Both the position numbers and the translations under genes were made by a program. A stretch of 20,000 nucleotides of DNA, taken from IMG/VR virus record IMGVR_UViG_3300030060_006061, positions 54,644 to 74,643 of that record. One strand, given 5' to 3'. The stretch comes from an uncultured virus (IMG/VR IMGVR_UViG_3300030060_006061) (lineage: Duplodnaviria; Heunggongvirae; Uroviricota; Caudoviricetes). The notes under the pieces were generated by a model. It worked only from the letters and a program-made list of their open reading frames with translations. It did no database searches and was not told the DNA's origin. How positions within the stretch are numbered: the stretch's first letter is position 1; every line of letters begins with the position of its first letter. Shown piece after piece: positions 1,778 to 20,000 of this stretch.

Positions 1778-3469
1778 ATGGCAAATTTAAGAACGAACAA
1801 TTTATCAGGAGAGCAAGGACAGAATGCCTATCGTGGGTCTGTTTTTTTCAATGACGATGGTGGTGGAAATGGGAGTGATAGTCTCACGGTTCCAGCTGGG
1901 TCAGATTTTGCATATGGCACGGGTGATTTTACATTTGAAGCGTATGTATGGATATCGAGATATAGTGGTGGCACGAGGCTTATTTTTTCACAGACTGTAA
2001 GCGGAACTAATTATATTCTTTTTGGTGTCACCTCATCTGGTCAGGTGACAACGATTCTTGGACATTCAAACCAAGTTACGTCAACAGAGACTATCGCTGA
2101 AAATTCTTGGAATCATGTCGCAGTTAGCAGAGCATCAGGCACTGTGAAGGTATTTGTTAATGGTGATGCATCTTCTGGATCATCGATCACCACAGATTTA
2201 AATGATACAACAAGAATTCCAACAATCGGAAAATATACACACTCAACTCAACTTCAATGGAAGGGATACATTTCAAATTTCAGAATAACAAAAGGAGAGG
2301 CACTTTATACAGTAAGTTTCATTCCACCAACAACTGAACTGACAGCAGATGCAAATACAGTTTTATTATGTTGTCAAAATTCTGATGATGTAACACAAGA
2401 GGCAACAGGAAAAACAATCACTGCAAGCGGAAATCTTGCAACTGTAGGTTACAATAAAACACAACCAAAAGTTATTCCACCATACGGAGTGGATGCAGGA
2501 AACGCATTCGGAGGGCCAATCCAACAAAACACTCAAGGATATATGTATTTCCAATCAGGAAGAACAGAGGAAAGAGGTGGAACTCGTGCTTTAATGATTG
2601 GAGGTTTCTCACCGGGTGGTTCTGATACCATTAATTTTGTAAATGTTGCGACGGAGGGGACAGCTTTAGATTTTGGAAATTTGAGTAGAGCTGCTGGTTA
2701 CTGTGGTGCAATGGGAGGTCGCACTAGAGGTGTCATACCTCTTCAATATCAAATGACTCCCTCTGAAGCCACAACCAATATTATTGAATTTTTAACAATT
2801 TTAACTGAGGGGAATACACAAGATTTTGGTGATATGGCAACTAGCACTTATGGTAGAGCATCCGCATCTAATGATGTTAGAGGAATCATATCAGGAGGAG
2901 AAGCAACGGAAGATGCCATGGAATTTATTACATTAGCATCACTAGGAAATGGTAGCAGTTTTGGTGATTTAACTCAGGGAAGAAGAGAGCCTCAATCAAC
3001 TGCTGATCCAACTCGCATGGTAACTGCTGGTGGTTATGCATCTCCTAGCACCGGCACTAGGTATAATATTATTGATTTTGTGACCATTGCGACAACTGGA
3101 AATGCACAAGATTTTGGTGACTTGACAGTAACACGTTGGAAACCCGCTGCTTGTGCTGATGCCACAAGGGGTGTATTTGCAGGTGGAGGTACACCATCTA
3201 ATTTAAATGTAATTGATTTTATTACAATTCAATCAACAGGAGATGCAACTGATTTTGGTGATTTGGTATTAACCAGTAGTCGTGGATCTGCAGGATCTGA
3301 TTCTATAAGGGGTGTTATTTTCACTGGTTTTTCAGATACTGGATCACATACTGCCAACATTGATAGCATAATTATTCAAACCACGGGAAGTGCAAAAAGA
3401 TTTGGTGAGACGACAACAGATACTCATAGTACAGGTGGACTATCAAATGGTCATGGTGGTCTTTCATAA
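1778..3469 (+). CDS. LamG/concanavalin A-like domain plus 6-repeat Kelch-like propeller protein (563 aa), A-type leader
   Basis: LamG-like motifs GTGDFTFEAYVW, WNHVAVSRASGTVKVFVNG and WKGYISNFRITKGEALYT..F.PPT at about aa 19-228. Six DFG-type repeats; ends NGHGGLS. Confidence 0.85.
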   Translation: MANLRTNNLSGEQGQNAYRGSVFFNDDGGGNGSDSLTVPAGSDFAYGTGDFTFEAYVWISRYSGGTRLIFSQTVSGTNYILFGVTSSGQVTTILGHSNQVTSTETIAENSWNHVAVSRASGTVKVFVNGDASSGSSITTDLNDTTRIPTIGKYTHSTQLQWKGYISNFRITKGEALYTVSFIPPTTELTADANTVLLCCQNSDDVTQEATGKTITASGNLATVGYNKTQPKVIPPYGVDAGNAFGGPIQQNTQGYMYFQSGRTEERGGTRALMIGGFSPGGSDTINFVNVATEGTALDFGNLSRAAGYCGAMGGRTRGVIPLQYQMTPSEATTNIIEFLTILTEGNTQDFGDMATSTYGRASASNDVRGIISGGEATEDAMEFITLASLGNGSSFGDLTQGRREPQSTADPTRMVTAGGYASPSTGTRYNIIDFVTIATTGNAQDFGDLTVTRWKPAACADATRGVFAGGGTPSNLNVIDFITIQSTGDATDFGDLVLTSSRGSAGSDSIRGVIFTGFSDTGSHTANIDSIIIQTTGSAKRFGETTTDTHSTGGLSNGHGGLS

Positions 3470-3474
3470 ATATG
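3450..3474 (+). repeat. 25-bp exact direct repeat (second copy at 6231-6255)
   Basis: GTCATGGTGGTCTTTCATAAATATG at the 3' end of both LamG-propeller genes, extending past the stop codon. Confidence 0.9.
3466..3472 (+). promoter_or_regulatory. T4-type late-promoter-like ATAAATA
   Basis: ATAAATA overlaps the stop codon of 1778-3469, about 20 nt upstream of the 3492 start. Resembles the T4 gp55 consensus TATAAATA. Confidence 0.55.
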
Positions 3475-3491
3475 AATAGGATAGTAGAACC

Positions 3492-4517
3492 ATGAGTTTT
3501 TCACCAAAAACTGTACCACTAGGAGCGATAAGATTCAACTCTGACTCACAGAAGTTAGAGTATTGGAATGGTAATATTTGGATGCAAATTCATACTTTCT
3601 CTCCAAATCTTGATGGTGGTACTAGAGGTATTTTTACTGGTATGGGTGCGATACCTAATATGAGCCCATATGGAATTCAATTTATAACAATTCCAACTCA
3701 AGGAAATGCAACAGATTTTGGTGATATGGTTGATGCGAGATCAAACGTAGGGTCTTTTGCATCAAATGTTCGTGGAGTGTTTGGTGGTGGTTACAGCCCC
3801 ACTCCAGATAATGATATTGATTTTGTTACCATACCATCAACAGGAAATGCAGTGGATTTTGGTGATATGAATTACAATGCATTTGATACGGTTGGAGCAT
3901 CAAATCAAACTCGTGGGTTATTTTTAGGAGGATCACCAAATAGTAGTGAGAATGGTGGTGTTAATAGTGTAGATTATGTAACAATTACGACAACAGGAAA
4001 TGCAAAAGATTTTGGAGATTTATTTTTAAAATGTATGACTGCGGGAGCTGGTGCAAATCCAGTAAGGGCAGTGGTTGCGAATGGAAAAGATGGCCCAGCA
4101 CATTCAAATGTTATTTTTAGAGTTAACATAGCAACACTAGGTAATTCATCAGACTTTGGGGATCAGTCTACAAGCAGACAAACCATGGGTGCATGTTCAA
4201 ATTCGGTTAGAATGGTATTTGGGGGTGGAGGCACTCCTACAAAAATATCTAGTATTGAAACTCTTTTGTTAGCGACTGAGGGTAACTCAGTATTATTTGG
4301 CGATCTTGGGGCTGCTAAATCTAGTCTTGGTGCTTGTTGTGATGCGACTCGTGCTGTATTTGGTGCTGGTATATTCCACCCTGAAACTCATACAAATAAT
4401 TTGGAATATATTAACATCGCCACTGGTGGTGATACAGTTGATTTTGGTGATTTATTGGATAATAGTAAAACATCAGGTGGCACTGGATTCTCAAATGGTC
4501 ACGGAGGTCTCGGATAA
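3492..4517 (+). CDS. Kelch-like propeller protein, B-type leader (341 aa)
   Basis: Leader VPLGAIRFNSDSQKLEYWNGNIWMQI; six repeats; ends NGHGGLG; TAATG overlap with the next gene. Confidence 0.85.
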   Translation: MSFSPKTVPLGAIRFNSDSQKLEYWNGNIWMQIHTFSPNLDGGTRGIFTGMGAIPNMSPYGIQFITIPTQGNATDFGDMVDARSNVGSFASNVRGVFGGGYSPTPDNDIDFVTIPSTGNAVDFGDMNYNAFDTVGASNQTRGLFLGGSPNSSENGGVNSVDYVTITTTGNAKDFGDLFLKCMTAGAGANPVRAVVANGKDGPAHSNVIFRVNIATLGNSSDFGDQSTSRQTMGACSNSVRMVFGGGGTPTKISSIETLLLATEGNSVLFGDLGAAKSSLGACCDATRAVFGAGIFHPETHTNNLEYINIATGGDTVDFGDLLDNSKTSGGTGFSNGHGGLG

Positions 4518-6250
4518 TGGGAATATTAAGAACTGATCGAGTATCTGGTTTAGGTGGTGCAAATGCCATCAAGGGATCTGTATTTTTTGGTAATTGTCTG
4601 AGTGCCGGAAGTGTCCTTGGATTTAATTATTTAAGAACTGAGAGTAGTGATAATTTTACATTCGGCACAGGAGACATAACGATTGAGGGTTGGTTTTTCT
4701 TCCCAAGATTATCAAGTAGCACTGGTTATCAAACTTTAGTTGGTGATACAATATACTCCAACACTGGTGGATTTACTTTTTATGTTCAGAACGGACAACT
4801 TAATTTTTGGAAAGGCACTAACGCAAGTAGTGTTGTTTCTGGTGGAACAATTGTGCAAAATGAGTGGACTCATCTTGCTTATACAAGAGAAAGTGGATCT
4901 AATAAAATTTTTGTTAATGGATCTTTAGTTGGAACAGCGAGTGATTCGACAGATTATACAGATACTACACTAACAATTGGAACTAACAAAGTAACCCAAC
5001 AATCAGGCACTGATGCTGGTCTATATTCTTTTTCCGGATTTGCTTCTAATTTGAGGATTTTAAAAGGAAGAGCACTATACACCGCAGCATTTACCCCACC
5101 GGTTGGAGAACTTCAAGTTATTGATAATACAGTTTTATTATGTTGTCAATCACCCGGAAATGTTTTACAAGAAGCCACTGGTGTTGTCTTAACCGCACCA
5201 AGGATTAACAATAGTGCTGGAGTTCAAGCATCACACTTCACACCAAACTCACCCGTTGGTTTCTCTACAACCACTGATGTTGGAACACAGTTTGGAACAA
5301 CCTTTAATGGTGTGACAACCTTTGACTCACAAGCATATATGGTTCCACCCGGTGGAAATACAAGAGAAAGAAACCGAGGTCGTGGTGTTCTTAGTGGTGG
5401 AAGAAGTAACCATGCCATGCAATTCATTAACATTCAATCTCAAGGAAATTCACAAATTTTTGGTGACAGCGTAACTGACGATGGAATAGAGGGATTTGCA
5501 GTTGGATCTTCAACAAGAGGTTTGTTTTCGGGTGGTTATCCTAGCGTAGGAAATGTAATTGAATTCATAACCTTTGCAACTACATCGAATGGTACAGATT
5601 TTGGTGACATGACCACAGGTAGAAGAAGTGGTGCGGGAGCAGGAAATGAAACAAGAGGTTTATTTGCTGGAGGATTAAATTCAAGTGGTACCTCATTAAA
5701 TACCATAGAATTTTCGACCATCGCAACATTAGGAAATTCAACTGATTTTGGTGATATGACACAGGCGAGAGATCAACTTGCCGGAGTTTCAGATACAACA
5801 AGAGCTGTTTTTGCTGGTGGAGTTGAACAAGGTGGTAGTCAACATAATATTATGGACTTCGTTACAATCGCAACAACAGGAAACGCACAAGATTTTGGTG
5901 ATATGACCGGAGTAAACACTGGTAGTGCCGGATCATCAGATTCAACAAGGGGTGTAATAACGGTTGGATATACAGCCCCGAATATGCTTGACCGAATTGA
6001 TTTTATAACAATACAGTCAGCAGGTAATGCAACTGATTTTGGTGATTTAACATTGGCAAGATATTTAAGTGCAAGTATGTCAAATTCAATCCGTGCAGTT
6101 ATTGCTGGAGGTGGATCACCCTCTTCTCAAAATACAATTGATTTTGTGACGATAAAAACAACAGGAAATGCAAATGATTTTGGTGATCTTATCGGAGGTG
6201 CTAATTTTGTTGTTGTTGGAACATCAGACAGTCATGGTGGTCTTTCATAA
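4517..6250 (+). CDS. LamG/concanavalin A-like domain plus 6-repeat Kelch-like propeller protein (577 aa), A-type leader
   Basis: GTGDITIEGWF, WTHLAYTRESGSNKIFVNG and FSGFASNLRILKGRALYT..FTPP. Paralog of 1778-3469 (shared NTVLLCCQ). Six repeats; ends SHGGLS. Confidence 0.85.
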   Translation: MGILRTDRVSGLGGANAIKGSVFFGNCLSAGSVLGFNYLRTESSDNFTFGTGDITIEGWFFFPRLSSSTGYQTLVGDTIYSNTGGFTFYVQNGQLNFWKGTNASSVVSGGTIVQNEWTHLAYTRESGSNKIFVNGSLVGTASDSTDYTDTTLTIGTNKVTQQSGTDAGLYSFSGFASNLRILKGRALYTAAFTPPVGELQVIDNTVLLCCQSPGNVLQEATGVVLTAPRINNSAGVQASHFTPNSPVGFSTTTDVGTQFGTTFNGVTTFDSQAYMVPPGGNTRERNRGRGVLSGGRSNHAMQFINIQSQGNSQIFGDSVTDDGIEGFAVGSSTRGLFSGGYPSVGNVIEFITFATTSNGTDFGDMTTGRRSGAGAGNETRGLFAGGLNSSGTSLNTIEFSTIATLGNSTDFGDMTQARDQLAGVSDTTRAVFAGGVEQGGSQHNIMDFVTIATTGNAQDFGDMTGVNTGSAGSSDSTRGVITVGYTAPNMLDRIDFITIQSAGNATDFGDLTLARYLSASMSNSIRAVIAGGGSPSSQNTIDFVTIKTTGNANDFGDLIGGANFVVVGTSDSHGGLS

Positions 6251-6253
6251 ATA
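6247..6253 (+). promoter_or_regulatory. T4-type late-promoter-like ATAAATA
   Basis: Same context as 3466: overlaps the stop of 4517-6250 and is followed by AGGAG and the ATG at 6272. Confidence 0.55.
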
Positions 6254-6271
6254 TGTTAGGAGTATAATTAT

Positions 6272-7282
6272 ATGTCAAATCAACCACCGATAGAAGTACC
6301 ACAAGGTGCAATCAGACTGAATACAGATTCTCAAAAGTTAGAGTTCTTTGCACAGGATCGGTGGTATGAGATGGCGACTGATACACAGGTGCTTGATGGT
6401 GGAGTTGGTCGTGGTATAGCAGCTGGTGGAAATACTCCAGGCCAAACAAACGTTATAGAATTTATCACAATACCAACAGCAGGTAATTCAACTGATTTTG
6501 GAGATTTAACCGCACCAAGACAAGCAGTTCCGGGTGCAACTGGTAGTTCAACTCGTGGTATAATTGGTGGTGGTCAAGAGTTTCCAGCATCAGTTAATAA
6601 AATTGATTTTATAACATTCTCATCAACAAGTAATGCACAAGACTTTGGTGATTTAACAGTTGCAAGACGACAACCAGCAACTACTGGTAATCAAACTCGT
6701 GGAGTTTTTAGTGGTGGTGAAGCACCAAATGCTGTAAATACGATAGATTTTGTAACAATCGCAGCAACTGGAAATGCAGTTGATTATGGTGATTTAACTG
6801 TTGCGAGAAGAATAGCTGGAGCTGCAGCCTCACCAACTCGTGCATTGATTATGGGTGGATATGCTGCTCCTGCGAGTCTCAATTCAATTGAGTTTCTTAC
6901 AATTTCAACAACTGGAAATTCACAAGACTTTGGAGATTTAACTGTTGCTAGGTATAATAATGGAGGAACTTCGAGTAGCACTCGTGCAGTTATGATGGGT
7001 GGTTATGCAACATCACCGGGTGCAGCAGTTAAGACTATTGATTTTGTTACCATTGCAACGATAGGAAATGCAATGAACTTTGGAGATCTTACAGAGACAA
7101 TTTATCATTCACAAACCGTATCAAATTCAATTCGTGCTGTTAGAATGGGTGGCGTTACTCCTTTGGATGATTCAATGGATTATATACAAATAGCAACTGA
7201 GGGAAATGCAGTTTTCTTTGGTGATTTACTCTCAACTCATAAAGAGGGTGCAGGTTGTTCAAATGCACATGGAGGTTTATAA
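6272..7282 (+). CDS. Kelch-like propeller protein, B-type leader (336 aa)
   Basis: AGGAG upstream of the start. Leader VPQGAIRLNTDSQKLEFFAQDRWYEM; six clear ~48-aa repeats; ends AHGGL. Confidence 0.85.
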   Translation: MSNQPPIEVPQGAIRLNTDSQKLEFFAQDRWYEMATDTQVLDGGVGRGIAAGGNTPGQTNVIEFITIPTAGNSTDFGDLTAPRQAVPGATGSSTRGIIGGGQEFPASVNKIDFITFSSTSNAQDFGDLTVARRQPATTGNQTRGVFSGGEAPNAVNTIDFVTIAATGNAVDYGDLTVARRIAGAAASPTRALIMGGYAAPASLNSIEFLTISTTGNSQDFGDLTVARYNNGGTSSSTRAVMMGGYATSPGAAVKTIDFVTIATIGNAMNFGDLTETIYHSQTVSNSIRAVRMGGVTPLDDSMDYIQIATEGNAVFFGDLLSTHKEGAGCSNAHGGL

Positions 7283-8319
7283 TGGCAATACTTAAAGTCG
7301 ATACAATCTCTGGAATTGGCACTGAAGGGCCAGTATTTGAAGGAGACATAGAATTTACAAGTCAAAACTTTTTAACACTTCCAAAGGGTGATACAACACA
7401 AAGAGGAAGAGGTCGTGCTGTGTTATTTGGTGGTAGTATAACTCCTGTTAGTCCTAATTTTTCATCCAATATCGATTACGTAGAGATGAGATCGTCGGGA
7501 GTTGGAGTGAGATTTGGCAATTTGAGTGCTGGTAATTCTTTTATGGGTTCATTTTCATCATCAACTCGTGGAATAAGTTTTGGTGGTCAACCCTCATCCC
7601 CTAATGGTCAAACAGATACTATAGAGTTTGTTACAATATCAACAGAAAGTAATGCAACAGATTTTGGTAATTTAGATAGAGGTAGAAGACAATTACAGGG
7701 TATGGGTCACTCTAACCAAACAAGAGGAATACTTGCTGGTGGTGGAGGAGATGCACCATTAGCACCAGATAATGTCATTCAGTTTGTTACAATCGCAACC
7801 ACAGGTAATGCATCAGACTTTGGTGATGTTTCTACATCAATCAGTAGAGCATCGGCAACAGGATCTTCAACAAGAATGTTAATAGCTGGTGGATCAACAC
7901 CAACAGCTATAAATACCATACAATTTGTCACCATAGCAACCACTGGTAATCCTACAGACTTTGGTGATTTATCTGCAGTAAGAATGGGAATGGGAAGAGC
8001 TTCAAACGGTGTTCGTGGTGTTTTTGCTGGTGGATACACTCCATCCTTAGTTAACATCATTGAATTTGTCAATATAGCGACCACTGGTAACACCACAGAC
8101 TTTGGTGATTTTTCAACTGCTAAAAGTAACATGGGGAGTGCTAATAATTCAATCATTGGAATTTTTCAAGGTGGTGGAACTCCTTCAAGAACCACAACAA
8201 TACAATCCATAACAATAGCGACCACTGGTGATGCTGTTGAATATGGTGATTGTAATATTACTGATCCTTTATTTGGAAGAGAGGGTTGTTCTGACAGTCA
8301 CGGAGGTTTAACAGAATGA
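7282..8319 (+). CDS. Kelch-like propeller protein, A-type leader (345 aa; start revised from 7255)
   Basis: ATG at 7282 overlaps the upstream TAA and follows GGAGGT. MAILKVDTISGIG aligns with paralog starts such as MGILRTDRVSGLG. Leader ends LPKGDTTQRGRGR; six repeats. Confidence 0.85.
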   Translation: MAILKVDTISGIGTEGPVFEGDIEFTSQNFLTLPKGDTTQRGRGRAVLFGGSITPVSPNFSSNIDYVEMRSSGVGVRFGNLSAGNSFMGSFSSSTRGISFGGQPSSPNGQTDTIEFVTISTESNATDFGNLDRGRRQLQGMGHSNQTRGILAGGGGDAPLAPDNVIQFVTIATTGNASDFGDVSTSISRASATGSSTRMLIAGGSTPTAINTIQFVTIATTGNPTDFGDLSAVRMGMGRASNGVRGVFAGGYTPSLVNIIEFVNIATTGNTTDFGDFSTAKSNMGSANNSIIGIFQGGGTPSRTTTIQSITIATTGDAVEYGDCNITDPLFGREGCSDSHGGLTE

Positions 8320-9347
8320 GTATCAATCCAGTCGAAATTCCAACAGGAGCAGTCAGATATAATACTGACAGTAATAAGATGGAGGTATATATTGGTGACA
8401 CATGGATGGAAGTCGCTGTAAGTTCACCAAATCTTGATGGTGGTGCTCGTGGAATCGTTATGGGTGGAAATCCGGGTGTAAATACTATTGATTTCTTTAC
8501 AATTTCAACTGCAGGAAATGCATCAGATTTTGGTGATTTACTTACCACATCATATTTAGGTGCATCAGGAGGAAGTCGCACTCGTGGAATATGTGTTATA
8601 GGAACACCAAGTCATAGTGATAAATTGGAATTTATTACAATCTCATCCACAGGAAATGCACAAGATTTTGGTGATCAATCTCATAGTAATCATAAAAGAA
8701 ACATATCTAATGGTGGAAGTGAAACAAGGATGATAATCGCTGGAGGGATATATGGAAATAACCCATATACTTATTATAATTCAATGGAATTTGTCACTAT
8801 TGCATCAACAGGAAATACAGTAGATTTTGGTGACATGACCGCGGCAAGAACTCAACCCTTTACTGCATCCAGCCCAACAAGATTTCTTACTCTTGGTGGT
8901 TATCAATCATCTTCACCAAATGCAAGTGATGTTATTGAATTTGTGACGACTGCATCCACGGGTAATTCTCAAGACTTTGGTGATTTAATGGAAGGTAATA
9001 GTGGAACTCCTGCGAGTTGCTCTAATTCAACAAGGGCAATAACATTTGGTGGTAGAATTGACGGAACATCAACAACAATAAGTAAAATTCAAACTGTACA
9101 AATAGCGACTGGGGGAAATGCAAGAAAATTTGGAGATTTGACTGAATCTGTAAGATTTGCTTCGGGTACATCTAGTAAAACAAGAGGAGTTAGAATCGCT
9201 GGTTATAAAGTTCCAGCTAACGCTGATGTGGATACAATGGATTACATCAATATATCCACAGAGGGGGATGCAGTTGATTTTGGAAACCTAACAAGATCAA
9301 CTCGTTCAAGTGGAACTGCAACCTCAAGTGATCATGGTGGGTTGTAA
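8316..9347 (+). CDS. Kelch-like propeller protein, B-type leader (343 aa)
   Basis: ATGA overlap with the upstream gene. Leader IPTGAVRYNTDSNKMEVYIGDTWMEV..SPNLDGG, similar to 3492. Six repeats; ends DHGGL. Confidence 0.85.
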   Translation: MSINPVEIPTGAVRYNTDSNKMEVYIGDTWMEVAVSSPNLDGGARGIVMGGNPGVNTIDFFTISTAGNASDFGDLLTTSYLGASGGSRTRGICVIGTPSHSDKLEFITISSTGNAQDFGDQSHSNHKRNISNGGSETRMIIAGGIYGNNPYTYYNSMEFVTIASTGNTVDFGDMTAARTQPFTASSPTRFLTLGGYQSSSPNASDVIEFVTTASTGNSQDFGDLMEGNSGTPASCSNSTRAITFGGRIDGTSTTISKIQTVQIATGGNARKFGDLTESVRFASGTSSKTRGVRIAGYKVPANADVDTMDYINISTEGDAVDFGNLTRSTRSSGTATSSDHGGL

Positions 9348-9375
9348 AAATACATAGATTCTGCTATACTAAATA
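9342..9375 (+). promoter_or_regulatory. Sigma70-like promoter (TTGTAA-17 bp-TATACT with extended TG) overlapping a T4-type late-promoter-like CTAAATA
   Basis: -35 TTGTAA at 9342-9347, 17-bp spacer, TG at 9362-9363, -10 TATACT at 9365-9370, CTAAATA at 9369-9375. Located in the longest intergenic gap (54 bp) of the window. Confidence 0.6.
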
Positions 9376-9401
9376 CATCAGTCATAACTTATTGAATAAT
9401 A

Positions 9402-10313
9402 ATGGATTCAGAAAAGTCAGCAGCAATTACGGAAGTTGAACTCACTCCTGGCTCTGCGATATCAGTTAGTGATCTAAAACAAGATTTAACAAACCTTACT
9501 CCTGAGTATAAGGGAATGTTAAGTCATATAGAAGAGACACTACCTGCAACAAATGCAGCATGTGATAACTTTTATAAGTCACACTCACAGATGATGACGG
9601 TGACATTAGATATCACTGATCTTACACCTATTCGTAGCATCAAGCATACTCTTGCATCAATCGAAAGAACAAAGAGTGCGATCATGGAAGCACAGATTAA
9701 TATGAAAAAGAATGAGGTGAAGATTAAGAAGAAGCAAAGAGAGATAGATAACTGCGAAGATACTTTAGATCAAGAGGAACTACAGATTGAGCTGATCGAA
9801 CTACTTAATAACAATCGTAGTATTGAGAACTCAATGAAAGGTGCGATTCGTAAGATGTCATTTTTGATGACGCAGTATCGTTCTGTTCTTGATCACATTG
9901 GTAAGGATTATATCACAGAGGAAGATTATGAAAGGGAAGAGAAACGCTATCATGTCATGACTGCATTGAAGCAAGCACTTAACTCTGCAAGACCTCGTGG
10001 TGGTGTGATTGATGAAGGTAACTCAATTTACTTATTTGACATCGGTGTCAACGTATCACATGCACAGGCAGAGATATTCAACTATCTCAAGATTGAGAAT
10101 GAAATGATCTCAAAAGGTCAAGCACCATCACATGAAATGACAGTTGAATGGCTTGAGAAGTGTGCAGATAAGTTCCAAGATTGTTCAGAAAGATTTGCAG
10201 CAAGTCGTGGATTCACAATACTTGATGAGAAATCATTGACAAGAGAAGATCAAGTGACTATGCTACCTTCAAGGGCAGACGCAGAGTATGCGAAACTAAA
10301 AGAAGCAGAGTAA
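9402..10313 (+). CDS. Hypothetical alpha-helical/coiled-coil protein (303 aa)
   Basis: Long ORF with charged heptad-like segments (IERTKSAIMEAQINMKKNEVKIKKKQREIDN...LQIELIELLNNNRSIENSMKGAIRK). No catalytic motif recognised. Confidence 0.75.
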   Translation: MDSEKSAAITEVELTPGSAISVSDLKQDLTNLTPEYKGMLSHIEETLPATNAACDNFYKSHSQMMTVTLDITDLTPIRSIKHTLASIERTKSAIMEAQINMKKNEVKIKKKQREIDNCEDTLDQEELQIELIELLNNNRSIENSMKGAIRKMSFLMTQYRSVLDHIGKDYITEEDYEREEKRYHVMTALKQALNSARPRGGVIDEGNSIYLFDIGVNVSHAQAEIFNYLKIENEMISKGQAPSHEMTVEWLEKCADKFQDCSERFAASRGFTILDEKSLTREDQVTMLPSRADAEYAKLKEAE

Positions 10314-10315
10314 TT

Positions 10316-11038
10316 ATGATTCATCTTGTAATTGGTACACCCATGTATGGTGGGATGTGCACTAGCGAATATACACAATCGTTATTAAATTTAAGTGAGG
10401 CAGCAAATAAGTCTGAAGGTGTCAAACTCACAACGATCTTTCTTGGTAATGAAAGTTTGATACAACGTGGGAGAAATACAATCGCACATCACTTTATGAA
10501 CCTACCTGATGCGACTCACTTGTTATTCATTGATGCTGACATCAAATTTCGCACTGAAGATATTGTGAAGATGATACAGGCAGATAAGTCTCTTATCATA
10601 GGCCCTGTTGCATTGAAAGGTTACAACTGGGATGAGATACGTCAAGCAGCGGTAAATGGTGAAGATGATATTGGTAGAACAGGTGGTGTTTTTAATATTA
10701 ATAGGCTTCCCGGTGTGGATATGATGAATGAGAATGAACCATTTGAAATCGAACATGGCGGTAATGCATTTATGATGATACGTCGCGATTGTTTTGAGAC
10801 ATTGAAACCCCACACTCCCATATATACTAATGGAGGAAGATCTCTACCTGACGGTGTAGAAATAAAAGACTACTTTCGTGTAGAGATAAATAAAGATACG
10901 AATCATTTATTATCTGAAGATTATTTCTTCTGTCATTCATATCGACAAGTAGGTGGAAAGGTCTGGTGTGCTCCTTGGGTGGAGACCGGACATTTTGGTT
11001 CACATCTCTTTAATGGTAAATACACTAGGAACAATTAA
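10316..11038 (+). CDS. Putative GT-A fold glycosyltransferase-like protein (240 aa)
   Basis: N-terminal strand LVIGTPMYGG, SLIQRGRN, DxD motif THLLFIDADI, FMMIRRDCFE, acidic motif LSEDYFFC and GHFG. This layout is typical of GT2-like phage proteins. Confidence 0.75.
   Translation: MIHLVIGTPMYGGMCTSEYTQSLLNLSEAANKSEGVKLTTIFLGNESLIQRGRNTIAHHFMNLPDATHLLFIDADIKFRTEDIVKMIQADKSLIIGPVALKGYNWDEIRQAAVNGEDDIGRTGGVFNINRLPGVDMMNENEPFEIEHGGNAFMMIRRDCFETLKPHTPIYTNGGRSLPDGVEIKDYFRVEINKDTNHLLSEDYFFCHSYRQVGGKVWCAPWVETGHFGSHLFNGKYTRNN
11016..11022 (+). promoter_or_regulatory. Possible late-promoter-like (G)TAAATA
   Basis: TAAATA about 21 nt upstream of the 11044 start, followed by AGGA. Confidence 0.35.
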
Positions 11039-11043
11039 CGAAA

Positions 11044-11850
11044 ATGGCACAACCAATCGTAAAATATACATTAAATAAGAAAGGGCAAGTGCCTGAGTGG
11101 ATTAACACTGGCTCATCTTCATTTGCCGGTGAACATAGTATTTCTGGAAATAAAACAGGATATATACCAAAGTATGAATCTCCACAAGATACGATCTTTT
11201 TGGGAATTGCATCTGGTGATCCAGATCCAGATGGAACTCCTGATGATTACGTTGGAATCATTACAACAAAAGCATTACTACAAAGTTATATAACAGCAAC
11301 AGGATCGACATTACAATATAAAACAACAACTCCAACAGTCACAGGTATTCAAACATCTGTAACAACTGGATTATCCACTGCATGGAATCAAGAGGAATAC
11401 TCTGGTGGATTATCAACAACAACATCTACAAAATACACAGCTTCAGGTGTTGGAACAGTTGCAACTTTATCTGGATCAACGGTTACAAAAGTTGTAGTCG
11501 CAACAGATACAACAACAGGTAGTTCTGACGCAACAACTGATACACCGATTGTAATTGATGCAGCATCTACATTAAGTGGAGTTTCAACATCATCATCTGT
11601 TGGAGTCGTAACAACCACAAACGATGCAGGTCTTGCAGTCACTACAACAACTACGACTTACACAACATCATATACTTACACTGATGTACAGACCACATCC
11701 TCAACATCAACATCTGAAACAACAACAGATGGAGTGACAACAAGAACTGACACAGTGACAACGACTGAATCTACAAATTATGATACCAGTTATGATTATG
11801 CAGCAGAAGCAACAAGACTCTGGAATATATACACGGCACTTAATTCATAG
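11044..11850 (+). CDS. Hypothetical protein with long Thr/Ser-rich low-complexity central region (268 aa)
   Basis: Ordinary-complexity N-terminus (IVKYTLNKKGQVPEWI...) and C-terminal helix (YDYAAEATRLWNIYTALNS) flank about 160 aa dominated by T/S (e.g. VTTTTTTYTTSYTYT). Confidence 0.75.
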   Translation: MAQPIVKYTLNKKGQVPEWINTGSSSFAGEHSISGNKTGYIPKYESPQDTIFLGIASGDPDPDGTPDDYVGIITTKALLQSYITATGSTLQYKTTTPTVTGIQTSVTTGLSTAWNQEEYSGGLSTTTSTKYTASGVGTVATLSGSTVTKVVVATDTTTGSSDATTDTPIVIDAASTLSGVSTSSSVGVVTTTNDAGLAVTTTTTTYTTSYTYTDVQTTSSTSTSETTTDGVTTRTDTVTTTESTNYDTSYDYAAEATRLWNIYTALNS

Positions 11851-11856
11851 TAATAT

Positions 11857-12651
11857 ATGAAATTTTATTTTGATTGTGGACTCCCTCGTTCGGGATCCAC
11901 TCTTTTGACTGCGATATTAAATCAAAACCCTAATATTCATGCTGGAACATTATCTCCAGTGATGGAATTAATGTATTATACGAATGAGATACTACATAGG
12001 GAACAAGCACAGGCATTTCCAAAACCAAAAGTATTTCAAGAGATAGTAACAAATAATATTATTAATTATTATTCTGATGTAAAAAATGAAGTGGTTGTTG
12101 ATAAGTGCAGAGCATGGCCTGCACACATAGATTTGTTAAAAAGATATGTGACTAATAATCCAAAATTGATATGCACAGTGCGTCATCCATTAGACATACT
12201 TGCATCCTTTATTACTTTATTTCATAAAGACGGAACACCTAACTTTATTGATAGAGCAATGACAGAGAGGAAAATACCAATCACAGATGATAATCGTTGT
12301 CATTATATGATGAATCCGGGTGGTATTGTGTGGGAATCAATGAACGCACTCGCAACAGCATTTAGACAGAAACAGCAACATCACATACACCTTATACAAT
12401 ATGATGATCTTGTATCTAATCCATCACAAGAGATTGCAAAACTACATGGATTTTTAGAGTTAGATCCGTATGTTTACAATTTTGATAATATTGTAGCTAA
12501 AGATAGAGAGAAAGATACTGAGGTATATGGATTACCAACGATGCATGAAATAAGAAAGAAAGTTAATAAAATATCTAAACCATATCAAGAAGTGTTGAGT
12601 GTTGATGTGATAAATAAATATATTAACTATGATTTTTGGAATCAGCAATAG
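11857..12651 (+). CDS. PAPS-dependent sulfotransferase (264 aa)
   Basis: 5'-PSB loop GLPRSGSTLL, VVVDKCR, 3'-PB motif VRHPLDILASF, and YDDLVSNP...L..FL. Confidence 0.88.
   Translation: MKFYFDCGLPRSGSTLLTAILNQNPNIHAGTLSPVMELMYYTNEILHREQAQAFPKPKVFQEIVTNNIINYYSDVKNEVVVDKCRAWPAHIDLLKRYVTNNPKLICTVRHPLDILASFITLFHKDGTPNFIDRAMTERKIPITDDNRCHYMMNPGGIVWESMNALATAFRQKQQHHIHLIQYDDLVSNPSQEIAKLHGFLELDPYVYNFDNIVAKDREKDTEVYGLPTMHEIRKKVNKISKPYQEVLSVDVINKYINYDFWNQQ
12610..12620 (+). promoter_or_regulatory. Possible late-promoter-like ATAAATAAATA
   Basis: Tandem ATAAATA in the 3' end of the sulfotransferase gene, about 30-40 nt upstream of where the propeller array resumes (12652). Confidence 0.45.
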
Positions 12652-13800
12652 ATGTCAGAAGTTAGGGTCAACAATTTATCAAACGAGAATAATACAGGTG
12701 GCCCTACTATATCAGGTATCACAACATATTCTGGCAGTCATTTCTTTGTGCCACCACAGGGAGATACTGCGAGTAGACCATCTGGTTGCAAGCCAGGATC
12801 ATTAAGATTTAACACAGATAATGCAAAGTTAGAATATTTTAGAGGAGATACGATTGGTTGGACAGAAATAGAGGCAAGTAATGAAGAGTTAGGACAAGAT
12901 CAGCATACCGTTACAGGACAAACTGGAATGGCGATTAGGGGATTATACGCTGGAGGTGGAACCCCAACTCGTGTTGATACGATTGATTACATAATTCTAT
13001 CAACACCCGGTAATGCAATCGATTTTGGTAATTTACCAGACACAAACTCAAACACACTCGGCACGGTTTCATCAAGATCAAGGGCATTATTTGGTGGTGG
13101 ATATCCATATACAAATAGAATTGGTTTTGTTGTTTTTGCAACTCAGGGAAATACCACTGATTTTGGAAATCTTTCACAGTCAAGAAGTAATTTAAATGGT
13201 CTTGGTGATGGTATTCGTGGAGTTTTTGTTGGAGGATACACTGGGTCAAATCAAACCACAATGGATTATGTTACTGTCGCACAAACAGGAGATGCTGTTG
13301 ACTTTGGAGATCTTTCAGGAGTAACAAACTCTGGATTAATTGCTAATTCATCAACTCGTGGTTTGATAGGTGGTATCAGTAATGGAGCTAATACAATTGA
13401 TTTTATTACAATTAGAACAACAGGAAATGCAACAGACTTTGGTGATATGACAGTTGGAAGATCTGGAGGGGCGGTCGGGCCATTTTGTAATGCAACGAGA
13501 GGGATATTTGCTGCTGGATACTCTGGTGGTGATCTTAATGTTCTTGATTTTGTTACAATGGCAACCAAAGGAAATGCATTAGACTTTGGTGATTTGATAC
13601 AAGCTGTATCTCAATCGGGTGCTGTATCATCACCAACTCGTGGAATGCTTATGGGCGGTATTGGTGGATCTCCGAGAGTAGCATTAAATACTATTCAAGA
13701 AACACAATTAGCATCAGCAGGAAACGCACAAGATTTTGGAGACATCTCACAGTCCAGAAACGGTGGTGGTGGTATATCTAATGGTCACGGAGGTTTATAA
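12652..13800 (+). CDS. Kelch-like propeller protein, fused A+B leader (382 aa)
   Basis: MSEVRVNNLSNENNTGGPTISGITT..FFVPPQGDTASRP...PGSLRFNTDNAKLEYFRG...W; six repeats; ends NGHGGL. Confidence 0.85.
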   Translation: MSEVRVNNLSNENNTGGPTISGITTYSGSHFFVPPQGDTASRPSGCKPGSLRFNTDNAKLEYFRGDTIGWTEIEASNEELGQDQHTVTGQTGMAIRGLYAGGGTPTRVDTIDYIILSTPGNAIDFGNLPDTNSNTLGTVSSRSRALFGGGYPYTNRIGFVVFATQGNTTDFGNLSQSRSNLNGLGDGIRGVFVGGYTGSNQTTMDYVTVAQTGDAVDFGDLSGVTNSGLIANSSTRGLIGGISNGANTIDFITIRTTGNATDFGDMTVGRSGGAVGPFCNATRGIFAAGYSGGDLNVLDFVTMATKGNALDFGDLIQAVSQSGAVSSPTRGMLMGGIGGSPRVALNTIQETQLASAGNAQDFGDISQSRNGGGGISNGHGGL

Positions 13801-13804
13801 TGTC
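13776..13804 (+). repeat. 29-bp near-identical gene-junction repeat (second copy at 14960-14988)
   Basis: ATCTAATGGTCA(C/T)GGAGGTTTATAATGTC, 28/29 identical, spanning the stop/start junction. Confidence 0.9.
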
Positions 13805-14984
13805 TGAAATCAATTCTTCTAATTTTAAAAAGGAACATGGTGATCTTGCACCGGATCTTGTTGGTGTTACAGAACTTACATCACCTTATTTCTTTGTGCC
13901 ACCATCAGGAACAACAGGAGAGAGACCAGATGATTGTGAGCCCGGCACAATGAGATTTAATACTGATGTTGGAAGTCTTGAGATATTTCGTGGTAAGACA
14001 ATTGGATGGGAACAGATACAAAGAAGAGAAAGTCAATATCTAGGAGGAGGAACAGGATCGAATACTGGAACTGGAACTCGTGTTTTACAAGCAGGAGGTA
14101 ATTCACCGTCATTAAATAATAATGTCATACAATTTGTTACTATCTCAACATTTGGAAATGCTCAAGATTTTGGTGACTTAAGTTACAATGGTGGAAACAG
14201 TAGAGGATCAGCATCATCAAACACTCGTGCTCTATTTGCTAATGATTCTCACTATAACACTATAGTTTTTTGTACCTTTGCATCTCTAGGAAACTCAACA
14301 AATTTCGGTGACACAACTTATACAGGAAGATATAAATGCGGATTATCCAACCAAATTCGTGGAATATTTGCTGGTGGAAATACCACACCAAGTTCACCTG
14401 CATCTAGTATTAATACAATAGATTCTGTCACGATTCCACAAACGGGAAATGCAGTAGATTTTGGTAATTTATCTGTAGCTCGTGCATATATAGCCACTTG
14501 TTCATCATCAACTCGTGGTGTGTTCGCTGCTGGTTATAGGTCATCACCAGTTAGTTCTGGTTCTAGCACCGTAGACTTTATCACAATCACATCAACAGGA
14601 AATGCAACAGACTTTGGTGATACTATTGGTACTCAATATGGTTGTGCTGGAGCATCAAACGCTACAAGAGGTATTATATCTGGTGGACACCTTGCCCCTT
14701 CAGGTAACACTAATACAATGCAATTCATAACTATTGCGACAACAGGAAATAGTATAGATTTTGGTGATATGGTTCAAGCATATGCGGTTCGTGTTCATGG
14801 TGGTTCATCATCATCAACTCGTGCTCTTTTTATGGGTGGATACAGAACTTCTGGATCACCAAATGCAACAAATGAGATTAACTCGGTTGAAATCGCAACG
14901 ACAGGAAATGCAACTGATTTCGGTGATCTAACAAATGCACCAATGTATACAGCCGCAACATCTAATGGTCATGGAGGTTTATAA
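13800..14984 (+). CDS. Kelch-like propeller protein, fused A+B leader (394 aa)
   Basis: FFVPPSGTTGERPDDCEPGTMRFNTDVGSLEIFRGKTIGW; six repeats; TAATG overlaps at both ends. Confidence 0.85.
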   Translation: MSEINSSNFKKEHGDLAPDLVGVTELTSPYFFVPPSGTTGERPDDCEPGTMRFNTDVGSLEIFRGKTIGWEQIQRRESQYLGGGTGSNTGTGTRVLQAGGNSPSLNNNVIQFVTISTFGNAQDFGDLSYNGGNSRGSASSNTRALFANDSHYNTIVFCTFASLGNSTNFGDTTYTGRYKCGLSNQIRGIFAGGNTTPSSPASSINTIDSVTIPQTGNAVDFGNLSVARAYIATCSSSTRGVFAAGYRSSPVSSGSSTVDFITITSTGNATDFGDTIGTQYGCAGASNATRGIISGGHLAPSGNTNTMQFITIATTGNSIDFGDMVQAYAVRVHGGSSSSTRALFMGGYRTSGSPNATNEINSVEIATTGNATDFGDLTNAPMYTAATSNGHGGL

Positions 14985-16141: not shown

Positions 16142-16144
16142 ATA
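16138..16144 (+). promoter_or_regulatory. Late-promoter-like CTAAATA
   Basis: Overlaps the stop of 14984-16141 and ends 5 nt before ATG 16150. Confidence 0.5.
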
Positions 16145-16149
16145 TTAAT

Positions 16150-17142: not shown

Positions 17143-17143
17143 T

Positions 17144-18193
17144 ATGTCTGAATTTAGAGTCAACTCAATCACAAATCAAGACGGAAGTGCAGGGCCTCAA
17201 GTATGTGGTGTCTCAACATTTAGTGGTAAGTCTGGTGTTCAGATACCAAGTGGATCATCAGAGTTTCGTAGACAAGATGGTGGTGGAAGAGGAAGAGGAA
17301 TTACAGGTGGTGGATTCGTACCTGCATCTAGTCAAAATGTAATGGATTTAATTGAGATTGCAACTACAGGAAATGCAACTGATTTTGGTGATCTCACAGT
17401 AGTTTTAAGAAACATTGCAACATGTGCATCATCAACTCGTGGAATTTTTGCGAGTGGTCAAACACCAAGTGTTAGTGATGTAATATGTTTTACGACTATA
17501 TCATCATCTGGTGGTGCAAATGATTTTGGTAATTTAAGAGAAGCGATGACAAATAGTAATGATGGTGTTCTTTCTGATAATACTCGTGGCATTATATTAT
17601 ATGGAGGGCCCACATCATTACCCCAACCTACTGTCCAAGGAACTTTAGATTTTATTACAATACCAACAACTGGTGACTCATCTAGATTTGGTGAATTAAG
17701 TGTGGCAAGAAGACATACTGCATCAATGGCCTCACCAACAAGAGGTGTGTTTGCAACAGGAAAAAATGACTCTATTAGTACTTACCTTAAAGTAATAGAT
17801 TTTGTAATAATTCAAACACAAGGAACTGCAGTAACTTTTGGGGAAATAATTACAAACGGTAGAGAACAGGCAGTTGGAGCAGGAAATAAAACAAGAGGTT
17901 TAATCGCTGGTGGTCTCAATCCGACTCCTTTTGATAGTATTGATTTTATTACACTCGCGACTACAGGAAATAGTCAGGATTTTGGTGATTTGTCTGGAAA
18001 TCGATTTGGTATGTCAAGCATGAGTAGTTCAACTCGTGCTACTTTTGCTGGTGGTAGCGCACCGGGAAGTTCCGATATTATAGAATTTGTAACTATTGCA
18101 ACCACAGGAAATGCAACAGACTTTGGTGATTTGACTGTTGCTCGAACAGTTCCACAAGGATTATCTGATGCTCATGGAGGATTAGCACAATGA
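17144..18193 (+). CDS. Kelch-like propeller protein, A-type leader (349 aa)
   Basis: MSEFRVNSITNQDGSAGPQVCGVSTFSG..VQIPSGSSEFRR..GRGR; six repeats; ends AHGGLAQ. Confidence 0.85.
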   Translation: MSEFRVNSITNQDGSAGPQVCGVSTFSGKSGVQIPSGSSEFRRQDGGGRGRGITGGGFVPASSQNVMDLIEIATTGNATDFGDLTVVLRNIATCASSTRGIFASGQTPSVSDVICFTTISSSGGANDFGNLREAMTNSNDGVLSDNTRGIILYGGPTSLPQPTVQGTLDFITIPTTGDSSRFGELSVARRHTASMASPTRGVFATGKNDSISTYLKVIDFVIIQTQGTAVTFGEIITNGREQAVGAGNKTRGLIAGGLNPTPFDSIDFITLATTGNSQDFGDLSGNRFGMSSMSSSTRATFAGGSAPGSSDIIEFVTIATTGNATDFGDLTVARTVPQGLSDAHGGLAQ

Positions 18194-19221
18194 CGGAACA
18201 AAGACCAATACAACCAACTCCCGTAGGAGCATTAAGATTTAATACTGATAGCGCGAAGTTAGAATATTTTGATGGAAATCAATATGTAAACATCACAACT
18301 GATTCACCCGAACAAAATACTGGTGGAACTCGTGGAGTAATGGCTGGTGGTGGATTCCCAAACACTGATGTAATTGATTTTGTAAACATAGATACAACTG
18401 GAAATGCAGTAGATTTTGGTGATCTAACTCGTGGTCTTTACTTGGTGCAAGCAGTTGCATCAAGAACAAGGGGATTATTTCATGGTTCTCATCAATCACC
18501 CGATCCAACTAGAAATAATCAAATAGAATTTGTAACCATAGCATCACAGGGAAATGCAGCAGATTTTGGTGATTTAACTGAGCAGGGTCATGGGTATAAT
18601 TCGGGAAGTGGTAGTAGTACTAGAGGAATATTTACTATACAAAATACATCTTCTAATACTGCTAATAATACAATAAATTATGTAACCATCGCACAAAATG
18701 GAAATGCAGTTGATTTTGGTGATCTTACTTTTGCAAGATCTGCTGCGAAAGGCAATGTAAGTTCACCTGTTCGTTCATGTTGGGCTGGAGGTCAAAATCC
18801 CTCTATTTCATCTCCTAGTGCGACTGATGTTATAGATTATATTATGATCGCAACAACTGGAAATGCAGCAGATTTTGGTGATTTAACACAAGCATCAAGA
18901 GAGGGAACAGGATGCTCGAATTGTATAAGGGGTTTTTACTTTTCTGGTTCGAGTGGAACTGATAATCAAATAGAATTTATAACCATTGCGACTCTAGGTA
19001 ATGCCATTGATTTTGGAGACCTTTCTTACAGTGCTGAAGCAGCAGGTGGTGGAGCATCACCAACTCGTGCAATATCTGCAGGAGGGACAGATAGTGGTGG
19101 TAAAGATACTATTGATTATTGGCAAATAAGCACGTTAGGGAATGCAGTTGATTTTGGTGATCGCACCGTATCGAAATATGGTTGTGGTGTTGCTTCAAAT
19201 GGACATGGAGGTTTAGGATAA
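18190..19221 (+). CDS. Kelch-like propeller protein, B-type leader (343 aa)
   Basis: ATGA overlap. Leader TPVGALRFNTDSAKLEYFDGNQY; six repeats; ends NGHGGLG. Confidence 0.85.
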   Translation: MTEQRPIQPTPVGALRFNTDSAKLEYFDGNQYVNITTDSPEQNTGGTRGVMAGGGFPNTDVIDFVNIDTTGNAVDFGDLTRGLYLVQAVASRTRGLFHGSHQSPDPTRNNQIEFVTIASQGNAADFGDLTEQGHGYNSGSGSSTRGIFTIQNTSSNTANNTINYVTIAQNGNAVDFGDLTFARSAAKGNVSSPVRSCWAGGQNPSISSPSATDVIDYIMIATTGNAADFGDLTQASREGTGCSNCIRGFYFSGSSGTDNQIEFITIATLGNAIDFGDLSYSAEAAGGGASPTRAISAGGTDSGGKDTIDYWQISTLGNAVDFGDRTVSKYGCGVASNGHGGLG

Positions 19222-20000
19222 TGTCAGAACTCAGAATTAACAACATCACAGACACTGCAGGGTCAAGTGGGCCAATTATTGCTGGTGTATCAACAGTCAC
19301 ATCAACATCACACATGGTCATGCCAAGTGGCTCAACAGAAATGCGTGGTGGAAGAGGAAGAGGAGTTACAGGTGGTGGATATCCCTCTTATAGAAATTTT
19401 ATGAATAAAATTGAAATAGCAACCACAGGAGATGCAATTGATTTTGGTGATATTACTAAAGAACTTAGAGGGCCATCGGATGGAGTATCCTCATCAACAA
19501 GAGGTCTTTTTGGGGGTGGTTTAGTAGCACCTAATAATGCCAGTCAAACTGTGATTTCATATGTCGTAATCTCCTCTGAAGGTGGTGCAAATGATTTTGG
19601 TGATTTGTCAAGAGACAGATTTATGATAAAAGGTCATTCAAATAATACTCGTGGAATATTTACTGGTGGATACGCAGTATCTCCATCTGTTCATGTTAAT
19701 AATATAGATTTTGTAAATATCGCATCAACAGGAGATGCAAATGATTTTGGTGATATATCTGCTACACCCCCAAGAAGCACGTTTGGTTCGGGATCATCAC
19801 CAACGAGAGGAGTATTTGGTGGAGGATATTATGGTGCACCGGGCACAGATGTAGCTGACATTGAGTTCATTACTTTTGCAACAAAAGGTAATTCTGAAAC
19901 TTTTGGTAATTTGAGTGCTGCGAGAAGAAATCTTGGGGGTGTCTCATCATCAACAAGAGCACTATTTGCTGGTGGTAATAATGGGTCTGGAACAAGTAAT
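19221..20000 (+). CDS. Kelch-like propeller protein, A-type leader, 3'-truncated (not in ORF track)
   Basis: Manual translation from ATG 19221 gives MSELRINNITDTAGSSGPIIAGVSTVTSTSHMVMPSGSTEMRGGRGRGVTGGG...IEIATTGDAIDFGD..., open to the window end. Closest to 17144 (shared ISSxGGANDFG). Confidence 0.85.
   Translation, partial: MSELRINNITDTAGSSGPIIAGVSTVTSTSHMVMPSGSTEMRGGRGRGVTGGGYPSYRNFMNKIEIATTGDAIDFGDITKELRGPSDGVSSSTRGLFGGGLVAPNNASQTVISYVVISSEGGANDFGDLSRDRFMIKGHSNNTRGIFTGGYAVSPSVHVNNIDFVNIASTGDANDFGDISATPPRSTFGSGSSPTRGVFGGGYYGAPGTDVADIEFITFATKGNSETFGNLSAARRNLGGVSSSTRALFAGGNNGSGTSN

Follow-up and report, generated by a model that had tools for sequence, protein, structure and literature searches.

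Split and fused N-terminal leaders in a tandem array of propeller genes from an uncultured phage

In the present study, we analysed a 20,000-nucleotide stretch of DNA (the window) from the uncultured virus IMGVR_UViG_3300030060_006061, which corresponds to positions 54644-74643 on the + strand, the final 20 kb of a 74,643-base IMG/VR contig. The window carries 14 tandem paralogous propeller genes, and two more are located just upstream (contig 52265 and 53632). Their proteins begin with a leader made up of module A (parts A1 and A2), module B, or both in one chain, and A-only genes tend to be followed by B-only genes. We found that this split leader is a real, conserved feature. It is about an even call that the array encodes accessory receptor-binding (adhesin) proteins whose split leader is re-formed between A-only and B-only neighbours. 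The genes, which are referred to below by their start positions in the window, are as follows (aa, amino acids).

361..1776, + strand: long-leader propeller gene, 471 aa; A2 (FTLPSGDTNSR) at residues 108-118 and B at 117-150 (window ~682-810); third in a row of three long AB genes, the first two of which lie upstream of the window
1778..3469, + strand: propeller gene with A1, LamG and a degenerate A2, 563 aa; Laminin_G_3 at residues 32-171, propeller from ~277
3492..4517, + strand: B-only propeller gene, 341 aa; B at residues 4-36 (window 3501-3599)
4517..6250, + strand: propeller gene with A1, LamG and A2, 577 aa; A1 at residues 1-23, Laminin_G_3 at 37-163, A2 at 261-285 (window 5297-5371)
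6272..7282, + strand: B-only propeller gene, 336 aa; B at residues 4-37
7282..8319, + strand: A-only propeller gene, 345 aa; A at residues 1-41 (window 7282-7404)
8316..9347, + strand: B-only propeller gene, 343 aa; B at residues 4-35; ATGA overlap with the stop codon of the preceding gene
9402..12651, + strand: four non-propeller genes, o303 (phrog_1409), o240 (phrog_1574), o268 and a sulfotransferase gene (PF13469)
12652..13800, + strand: A+B propeller gene, 382 aa; A at residues 1-42, B at 41-75; head modelled as a Kelch-fold propeller
13800..14984, + strand: A+B propeller gene, 394 aa
14984..16141, + strand: A+B propeller gene, 385 aa
16150..17142, + strand: orphan B-only propeller gene, 330 aa; located 3' of the three AB genes in every relative examined
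17144..18193, + strand: A-only propeller gene, 349 aa; leader residues 1-48 of low confidence in the AlphaFold model
18190..19221, + strand: B-only propeller gene, 343 aa; B at residues 6-38; ATGA overlap with the stop codon of the preceding gene
19221..20000, + strand: A-only propeller gene, 260 aa seen, cut by the contig end; relatives continue with an A-only and then a B-only gene

Leader modules and gene order

Hidden Markov models (HMMs) of the modules were built from the window's own leaders and were used to classify the array genes. A1 comprises the first ~30 residues, A2 carries the motif PxGxTxxR, and B (GxxRFNTDxxxLEYxxGxxW) is a three-strand beta meander. The HMMs reproduced the classes given in an initial annotation of the window. 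Genes 12652, 13800 and 14984 open with A at residues 1-42 (E 2e-21 to 2e-23) followed by B at residues 41-75 (E 2e-18 to 3e-17), whereas gene 361 and the two upstream genes share a ~110-residue N-terminus preceding A2+B. Genes 3492, 6272, 8316, 16150 and 18190 have only B, at residues 4-38 (E 1e-17 to 1e-19), and genes 7282, 17144 and 19221 were A-only by HMM. The annotation had further stated that A-only genes run straight into the propeller, which held for 7282, 17144 and 19221 and failed for 1778 and 4517. In these two genes a Laminin_G_3 (LamG) domain (PF13385) intervenes, and the order is A1 (~residues 1-20), Laminin_G_3, A2 and propeller. The domain was recognised well above its gathering cutoff of 27.6 bits, at residues 32-171 of 1778 (E 7.6e-19, 68.8 bits) and residues 37-163 of 4517 (E 2.5e-16, 60.6 bits). 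A2 of 4517 was detected at residues 261-285 (E 3.5e-5 by HMM), and the A assignment of 1778 was weak (A-HMM E 0.36). Since LamG sits between A1 and A2, module A is itself composite.

The B-only genes start exactly at the point where B starts in the AB genes. With open reading frames (ORFs) called from the first start after a stop, no upstream extension of a B-only ORF into an A module was possible, and a Shine-Dalgarno sequence and an ATG of its own were present for each B-only gene. The A2 motif is retained in the A-only genes. In a gene pair, the A2/B junction is exactly where a head domain and a gene boundary are placed, and the pair therefore represents one AB unit in split form. Leader class was also constant among metagenome homologues: 106 of 120 matches to an AB gene were AB, and the class was kept in 114 of 120 matches to an A-only gene and in 116 of 120 matches to a B-only gene, the off-class matches being mostly truncated or double-propeller proteins. 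A Pfam search with nine window leaders, at E values up to 10, gave no match. PTL_trimer (PF26696) was considered as a family for the leader and set aside, as it appeared solely as a lead in the ESM Atlas, on 22-42% of the members of neighbouring clusters, and the Pfam scan gave no match to it; no paper naming PTL_trimer was found in the open-access literature. In some A-only and B-only orthologues, a glycine-rich extension of 30-70 residues (MGYGGGGGG..., MNLNFWPKMYYSGGGG...) precedes the leader (L015:11189-12355, L015:13449-14651, L016, L023 and L115; proteins P0244, P0246 and P0331), indicating that the N-terminus of the leader need not be free.

All four complete A-only genes, the LamG forms included, lie immediately 5' of a B-only gene. 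This regularity had been noticed in the initial annotation, and label shuffling within the window array gave P = 0.023 for it. In the complete array of the nearest relative, five of the six A genes were followed by B (shuffle P = 0.007). Relatives were represented by 77 + 38 IMG/VR loci, plus the upstream parts of four records. One contig clade has the whole array in identical order, with three long-AB genes, three "A…/B" units and the four non-propeller genes in its 5' part, and AB, AB, AB, B, an A/B pair, A and an A/B pair in its 3' part. Among the distinct A-only genes with a called downstream neighbour (identical sequences counted once, + strand only, LamG forms put in A by their N-terminal pattern), 53 of 65 were followed by a B-only gene, 11 by an A-only gene and one by something else; because these 65 genes are orthologues, the count shows conservation of the pattern and no independent recurrence. 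The A-then-B adjacency, for which the annotation had proposed a test in other phages, was thus found at orthologous loci. In relatives where LamG replaces the propeller of the A gene (Laminin_G_3 at 53.9-70.4 bits), a B-only gene is still next. As for the truncated gene 19221, the annotation had raised the question whether a B-type gene comes directly after it. The nearest relative (L011) has A at 12048, A at 13076 and B at 14158 at this site; based on the synteny of the relatives, the next gene is predicted to be A-only, and the B-only gene would come second.

Fused forms and the fibre repeat

Single AB genes take the place of the second and third "A…/B" units, at the positions of 4517+6272 and 7282+8316, in the relatives G001 (= L078+L003) and G005 (= L081+L004). 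The leader of the first fused gene (L003 AB:385) matched 4517 at residues 1-23 (56%) and 260-286 (59%), and the remainder best matched 6272 (49% over 343 residues). As the matches to 4517 flank LamG on both sides, LamG constitutes an insertion in A. L003 AB:366 has a leader that matched residues 1-39 of 7282 (64%, E 2e-19) and a B piece similar to that of 8316. Each fused gene thus corresponds to an A leader from the first gene of a pair, joined to B+propeller from the second one, with the first head (and LamG) gone. At the site of 17144+18190, L115 has a single 586-aa ORF that consists of an A leader (78-81% identical to the orthologous A leaders), 210 residues without a match, and B+propeller (45-49% identical to the orthologous B genes). 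A single chain was also found in the metagenome protein P0317, which contains A, ~four blades, B and further blades. In G001, G005 and L115, neighbouring genes of the window therefore occur as one gene at the same position, which is the Rosetta-stone relation. In an outgroup-rooted tree of o303 with 19 rows (10 ingroup and 9 outgroup, near-identical contigs left out), the fused lineage was nested among split lineages, with a value of 85/86 at the key node. Since the fused lineage nests inside the split group, the fusions look derived from the split state, as judged from one gene in mosaic phages.

We then considered the A2+B stretch in other proteins. A profile of 29 AB leaders (A4) was searched against 1.84 billion representative proteins, with 16,565 matches at E <= 1e-3, of which 142 reached E <= 1e-30. 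Most of the 150 top-ranking proteins were 1-5 thousand residues long, and each of the 150 had 3-22 copies. These 150 proteins contained 944 units spanning A2 and B, with the consensus ILPRGTTAQRPTTPVNGMIRYNTTTNKFEVYQGGAWVDL, and A2 was always directly followed by B. Since A2 and B are contiguous in fibre-like proteins, A2+B constitutes one repeat unit. Among the profile matches of at most 1000 aa, 18 of 47 matched DUF7360 (PF24059), DUF2793 (PF10983) or Mtd_N (PF18454) at E <= 1e-3, and seven passed the curated cutoff, namely DUF7360 in P0424, P0446 and P0474, DUF2793 in P0427, P0443 and P0478, and Mtd_N in P0441. The Mtd_N match of P0441 (28.6 bits, cutoff 26.3) covers residues 133-161, inside an A2+B unit at residues 110-174. 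Other matches of at most 1000 aa bear Collagen, Peptidase_S74 or YadA-head domains, which are marks of trimeric fibres. Furthermore, besides the fibre repeats, the leaders matched PHROG families that bear the names virion structural protein and tail fiber protein. Judged by these sequence comparisons, A2+B is one copy of a widespread fibre repeat of ~45-55 residues, with a possible distant link to Mtd_N, DUF7360 and DUF2793.

Structure models were in line with this unit. In the AlphaFold2 model of 12652 (AB), the predicted local distance difference test score (pLDDT) was 35-40 for residues 1-30 (A1) and 74-81 for residues 31-70 (A2+B), and the leader strands were placed at residues 51-54, 59-63 and 70-72. 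In the model of the A-only protein 17144, the whole leader had a pLDDT of 46-57, and A2 was below 50 (~46). These single-chain models agree with a need of A2 for B in folding without proving it. The ESM Atlas model of a leader (residues 1-84) superposed on small viral proteins with template modelling (TM) scores of 0.86-0.90. A search of the PDB with the leader profile returned only residues 369-406 of 9d83_D ('Gp49', E 0.25), in which the A2+B motif is convincing and the match is not significant; the narrow A2+B profile and P0441 gave nothing in the PDB. No paper naming 9D83 or 9D84 was found, the texts returned being unrelated. Collectively, the fused genes, the L115 ORF, the contiguous repeat and the AlphaFold pLDDT values support the proposal of the initial annotation that A and B are halves of one unit.

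Leaders, heads and neighbouring genes

To compare leaders with heads, 10 syntenic gene pairs of the phage of the window and its nearest relative were aligned. The leaders were 75-100% identical and the heads 40-51%, the heads being no closer than paralogues. For the B-only genes alone, the leaders were 75-95% identical and the heads 40-51%. The four non-propeller genes inside the array were 79-98% identical between the same two phages. The boundary between leader and head was sharp and lay near residue 55; in 17144, identity dropped from 100% to ~50% within 50 residues. A conserved adaptor with an exchangeable head, as these alignments suggest, is typical of the classic receptor-binding protein (RBP). 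The pattern holds for B-only leaders as it does for A leaders, and therefore B is a functional adaptor and no remnant.

The propeller genes contain six repeats of ~48 residues with the motif IDFVTIATTGNAxDFGDL, followed by a C-terminal GHGGL; across the window heads the blade motif reads I(D/E)(F/Y)(V/I)TIxxxGNAxDFGDL. The AlphaFold2 model of 12652 had a mean pLDDT of 83, with values above 90 in the head. Foldseek comparison of this head with the PDB returned KLHL12, KEAP1 and designed SAKe propellers (TM 0.84-0.88 by target), with a root-mean-square deviation of 2.2-2.7 Å and an identity of 14-18%. According to the model, the head is a Kelch-type six-blade beta-propeller. None of the window propeller genes matched the Pfam Kelch models at E <= 0.01, and a PDB sequence search with a profile of the full-length propeller protein gave nothing. 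Three homologue searches each returned at least ~8,000 metagenome matches, none of which was informatively named. In the Pfam, PDB and metagenome searches, the head family thus came out without a Pfam model, a solved relative or a named homologue.

The C-terminal GHGGL has a second aspect at the DNA level. Its codons (CAY GGA GGN YTN) place a GGAGG Shine-Dalgarno sequence 7-10 nucleotides (nt) 5' of the ATG of the next gene, at window 1755-1777, 7262-7281, 8297-8315, 13781-13799, 14965-14983, 18171-18189 and 19202-19220; the same bases therefore encode the protein motif and serve the next gene as ribosome-binding site. This repeated junction may be a site for recombination between paralogues.

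Other arrangements were observed in distant phages (L001, L024, L026, L032, L040, L046, L049, L070 and others), which have double propellers of ~620-640 aa or other leaders. These leaders include MANYPQLD..SGVW.L, FN3-like N-termini and a divergent AB form, TEPSSPxNGxxWWDTxxDKLYxY, and the propeller genes of distant phages often occur in runs of two or three. A tandem trio of genes with AB-type leaders and heads other than propellers (140, 348 and 361 aa, two with LamG) was seen in another phage group, in L103:6135-8942, L105, L107 and L116. In the L103 group, this trio follows a 1326-aa protein, the N-terminus of which resembles that of the 1985-aa baseplate-like protein of the contig analysed here. 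The gene of the latter contains a run of 10 N (G000:C1:44160-44169, outside the window).

The contig, the completeness of which was estimated at 38% by CheckV, encodes the photosystem II proteins D1 and D2 and a gp32-like single-stranded DNA-binding protein. Upstream of the array, it also has genes for a baseplate tube cap, a baseplate hub/tail lysozyme and a tail fibre. Based on this set of D1/D2, gp32-like, baseplate and tail-fibre genes, the phage is a T4-like cyanomyovirus. The array starts immediately 3' of the tail-fibre gene, all of its genes are on the + strand, and adjoining genes overlap by 1-4 nt or are separated by at most ~20 nt. The genes for o303, o240, o268 and the sulfotransferase break up the array in all close relatives. 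Of these, o240 is glycosyltransferase-like (phrog_1574), with homologues in phage records named dpG-synthase-like or putative glycosyltransferase, and o268 is a Ser/Thr-rich protein of 268 aa. These genes may act in glycosylation or sulfation of virion proteins. Minus-strand ORFs of 84-125 aa within the plus-strand genes (1145-1423, 7779-8156, 8258-8581, 10523-10813, 11388-11642, 12935-13568 and 15727-16011) look like by-products of repeat composition.

Window positions 9000-13000 gave no match to phage genomes by megablast. The propellers of 12652 and 18190 gave no match among INPHARED phages by tblastn, and no cultured carrier was found in this search set, which may lack close records; tblastn of a distant propeller against INPHARED gave a weak match to S-SKS1 only. 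No paper on cyanophage propeller or LamG fibres of this family was found in the open-access literature, a scope that most subscription journals fall outside.

Alternative explanations and a proposed assembly

Known phage systems offer a precedent for a protein that reaches the virion through its neighbour. In branched (anchor-branch) RBP systems, as described for the G7C, K1-5/SP6, KP32/KP34, Menlow and PhiK64-1 groups (PMC6872550; PMC13352976), an anchored first RBP carries an adjacently encoded second RBP with a short conserved N-terminal peptide (PMC6872550). Such systems resemble the present array in several respects: the first RBP has a conserved N-terminal virion anchor, the RBP of the next gene is anchorless and begins with a short conserved piece, heads are highly variable on conserved N-termini, and several RBPs are mounted per particle. 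The B-only genes likewise encode anchorless, adjacent second proteins with a conserved N-terminal piece and a variable head. The systems differ in how the second protein is held. There, a T4gp10-like branching domain in the first RBP receives the peptide of the second, whereas the A leader here has ~43 residues; domain scans of the window proteins, which did not include HHpred against T4 gp10, found no gp10-like branching domain and only leader, LamG and propeller. Here, the N-terminal pieces are halves of one repeat unit that is also found fused. Those systems have beta-helix depolymerase heads and experimentally demonstrated binding of the second RBP, whereas the heads here are Kelch propellers and LamG, and the system is known from genes and models.

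The findings that weigh against re-formation of the leader in trans were considered together. All compared arrays are syntenic orthologues; the adjacency was therefore inherited, and the counts stand essentially for one observation. The orphan B-only gene 16150, which the initial annotation had pointed out as a break of strict pairing, follows the three AB genes in every relative examined, A-A-B runs exist, and the last block of some relatives consists of two A-only and three B-only genes. Accordingly, an A-only neighbour cannot be a requirement for every B-only protein. For the propeller of the second fused gene, orthology to that of 8316 is not clear; its best match is 6272, because the heads have diverged to paralogue level. 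Binding of A2 to some other partner could equally explain its low pLDDT in the absence of B. In mean-field direct coupling analysis of 928 repeat units, the top pairs joined A2 to B (G8-R23, R13-R23 and R13-E32), and A2-B couplings were not enriched (9 of the top 20 against ~7 expected); they may reflect two subfamilies instead of contacts.

Several of these points would also be accommodated if A-only, B-only and AB proteins each bound their own site in the baseplate or fibre network. The A-then-B order would then be a relic, originating from a head cassette plus gene boundary inserted into an AB gene, or from tandem duplication, and kept by conserved synteny. Such attachment fits the orphan B, the A-A-B runs, the unequal blocks and the orthology of the arrays, and position-specific conserved leaders fit one docking site per leader. 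It does not readily explain why B-only proteins lack the A1 that opens other fibre-like proteins of these phages, or why A2 is kept in A-only genes although B always comes after A2 in the repeat family. Nor does it account for split, fused and single-chain forms in the same slot. We regard this explanation as rather unlikely, though it deserves to be taken seriously.

Docking in the manner of Mtd was also considered, in which B would form its own trimeric beta-prism and sit on the end or head of the upstream protein, or on another fibre, with A2 uninvolved, much as Mtd of phage BPP-1 is proposed to attach to its tail fibre. The N-terminal domain of Mtd is reported to be a trimeric beta-prism (PMC10743442). 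Mtd of BPP-1 resembles the present proteins in its short N-terminal beta module (Mtd_N, GTTAQ...G...x(D/N)T(D)...L.V..G) before a variable head, and the BPP-1 tail-fibre gene is directly 5' of mtd. Intermediate repeat proteins may link the A2+B unit to Mtd_N, DUF7360 and DUF2793, P0441 reaching Mtd_N over its A2+B stretch, and an orphan B would be accommodated. However, the Mtd_N match spans A2 as well as B, so that B alone would be a truncated unit, and in Mtd the whole unit is in one chain, whereas here it is cut between two genes. The direct alignment is poor as well: hhalign of the leader alignment against BPP-1 Mtd gave a probability of 0.2% (E 0.29), in the expected register with SLRFNTDNAKLEYFRG aligned to EITVDTDKNTVVVHDG, and the Pfam search of the leaders up to E 10 remained empty. 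Serial docking of this kind is therefore judged unlikely.

A role outside the virion, with the proteins acting as intracellular Kelch-type host-takeover factors, is very improbable. Kelch domains of eukaryotic viruses do act inside cells, and poxvirus Kelch proteins were among the fold matches. Nevertheless, the genes stand directly 3' of the baseplate and tail-fibre genes, on the same strand and tightly coupled, the leaders match fibre repeats and PHROG structural families, and a conserved leader with a hypervariable head is typical of receptor-binding proteins. Recoding of A-only and B-only genes into A-head-B-head chains by frameshift or readthrough is scarcely credible, and since the A/B junctions are not alike in frame, it was set aside as a general mechanism: the ATGA overlap at 8316 and 18190 (B gene in the -1 frame), the shared frame of 4517 and 6272 (one stop codon and 21 nt between them) and the single chains of P0317 and L115 would speak for it, but the four junctions would need three kinds of event (-1 frameshift, +1 frameshift and readthrough), and every B-only gene has its own Shine-Dalgarno sequence and start.

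Taken together, trans-assembly of the split leaders is plausible, the gene comparisons and models leaving its chances roughly balanced. In the assembly we propose, each protein would have a leader that is conserved and specific to its array position, and a hypervariable head. The head would be a Kelch-fold propeller of six blades, which a LamG lectin domain accompanies or replaces in some proteins. A1 would be a fibre-type N-terminal anchor, which does not fold alone in the model. Lacking this anchor, a B-only protein would reach the virion through the A2 of its A-only neighbour and would be carried there via the rebuilt A2+B unit. One anchor would in this way bear two or more different heads in a single fibre.

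A more specific version, which we put forward tentatively and hold to be doubtful, is that the array is organised in units of three A and three B modules, with a trimeric beta-prism A2+B layer built from up to six chains. The units would be the three long AB genes; the three A/B pairs or their fused equivalents; the three AB genes; and the series B, A, B, A, A, B. Under this arrangement, up to 18 different Kelch or LamG heads might be displayed per virion on a few hetero-oligomeric branched fibres, and heads would be gained or lost by cassette insertion or deletion at the A2/B junction. A loose parallel is provided by the MAT fibres of Bdellovibrio (PMC10769870), which form a large paralogous set with diverse adhesive tips on repetitive trimeric beta-prism stalks. 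The MAT fibres are, however, bacterial and single-chain each, without split leaders.

If this more specific version holds, the splitting of a fibre repeat between genes would be a novel means of constructing multi-specific phage fibres. Co-assembly of the split leaders would give the phage a compact genetic system for mounting many exchangeable heads on one particle, and would represent a second, structurally different route to branched RBP complexes, beside the gp10-like branching domains known from enterobacterial phages. For host-range studies, the sharp boundaries between leaders and heads offer natural swap points. Marine Synechococcus and Prochlorococcus are killed in large numbers by T4-like cyanophages, whose host-recognition apparatus, to which this array would belong, is poorly known.

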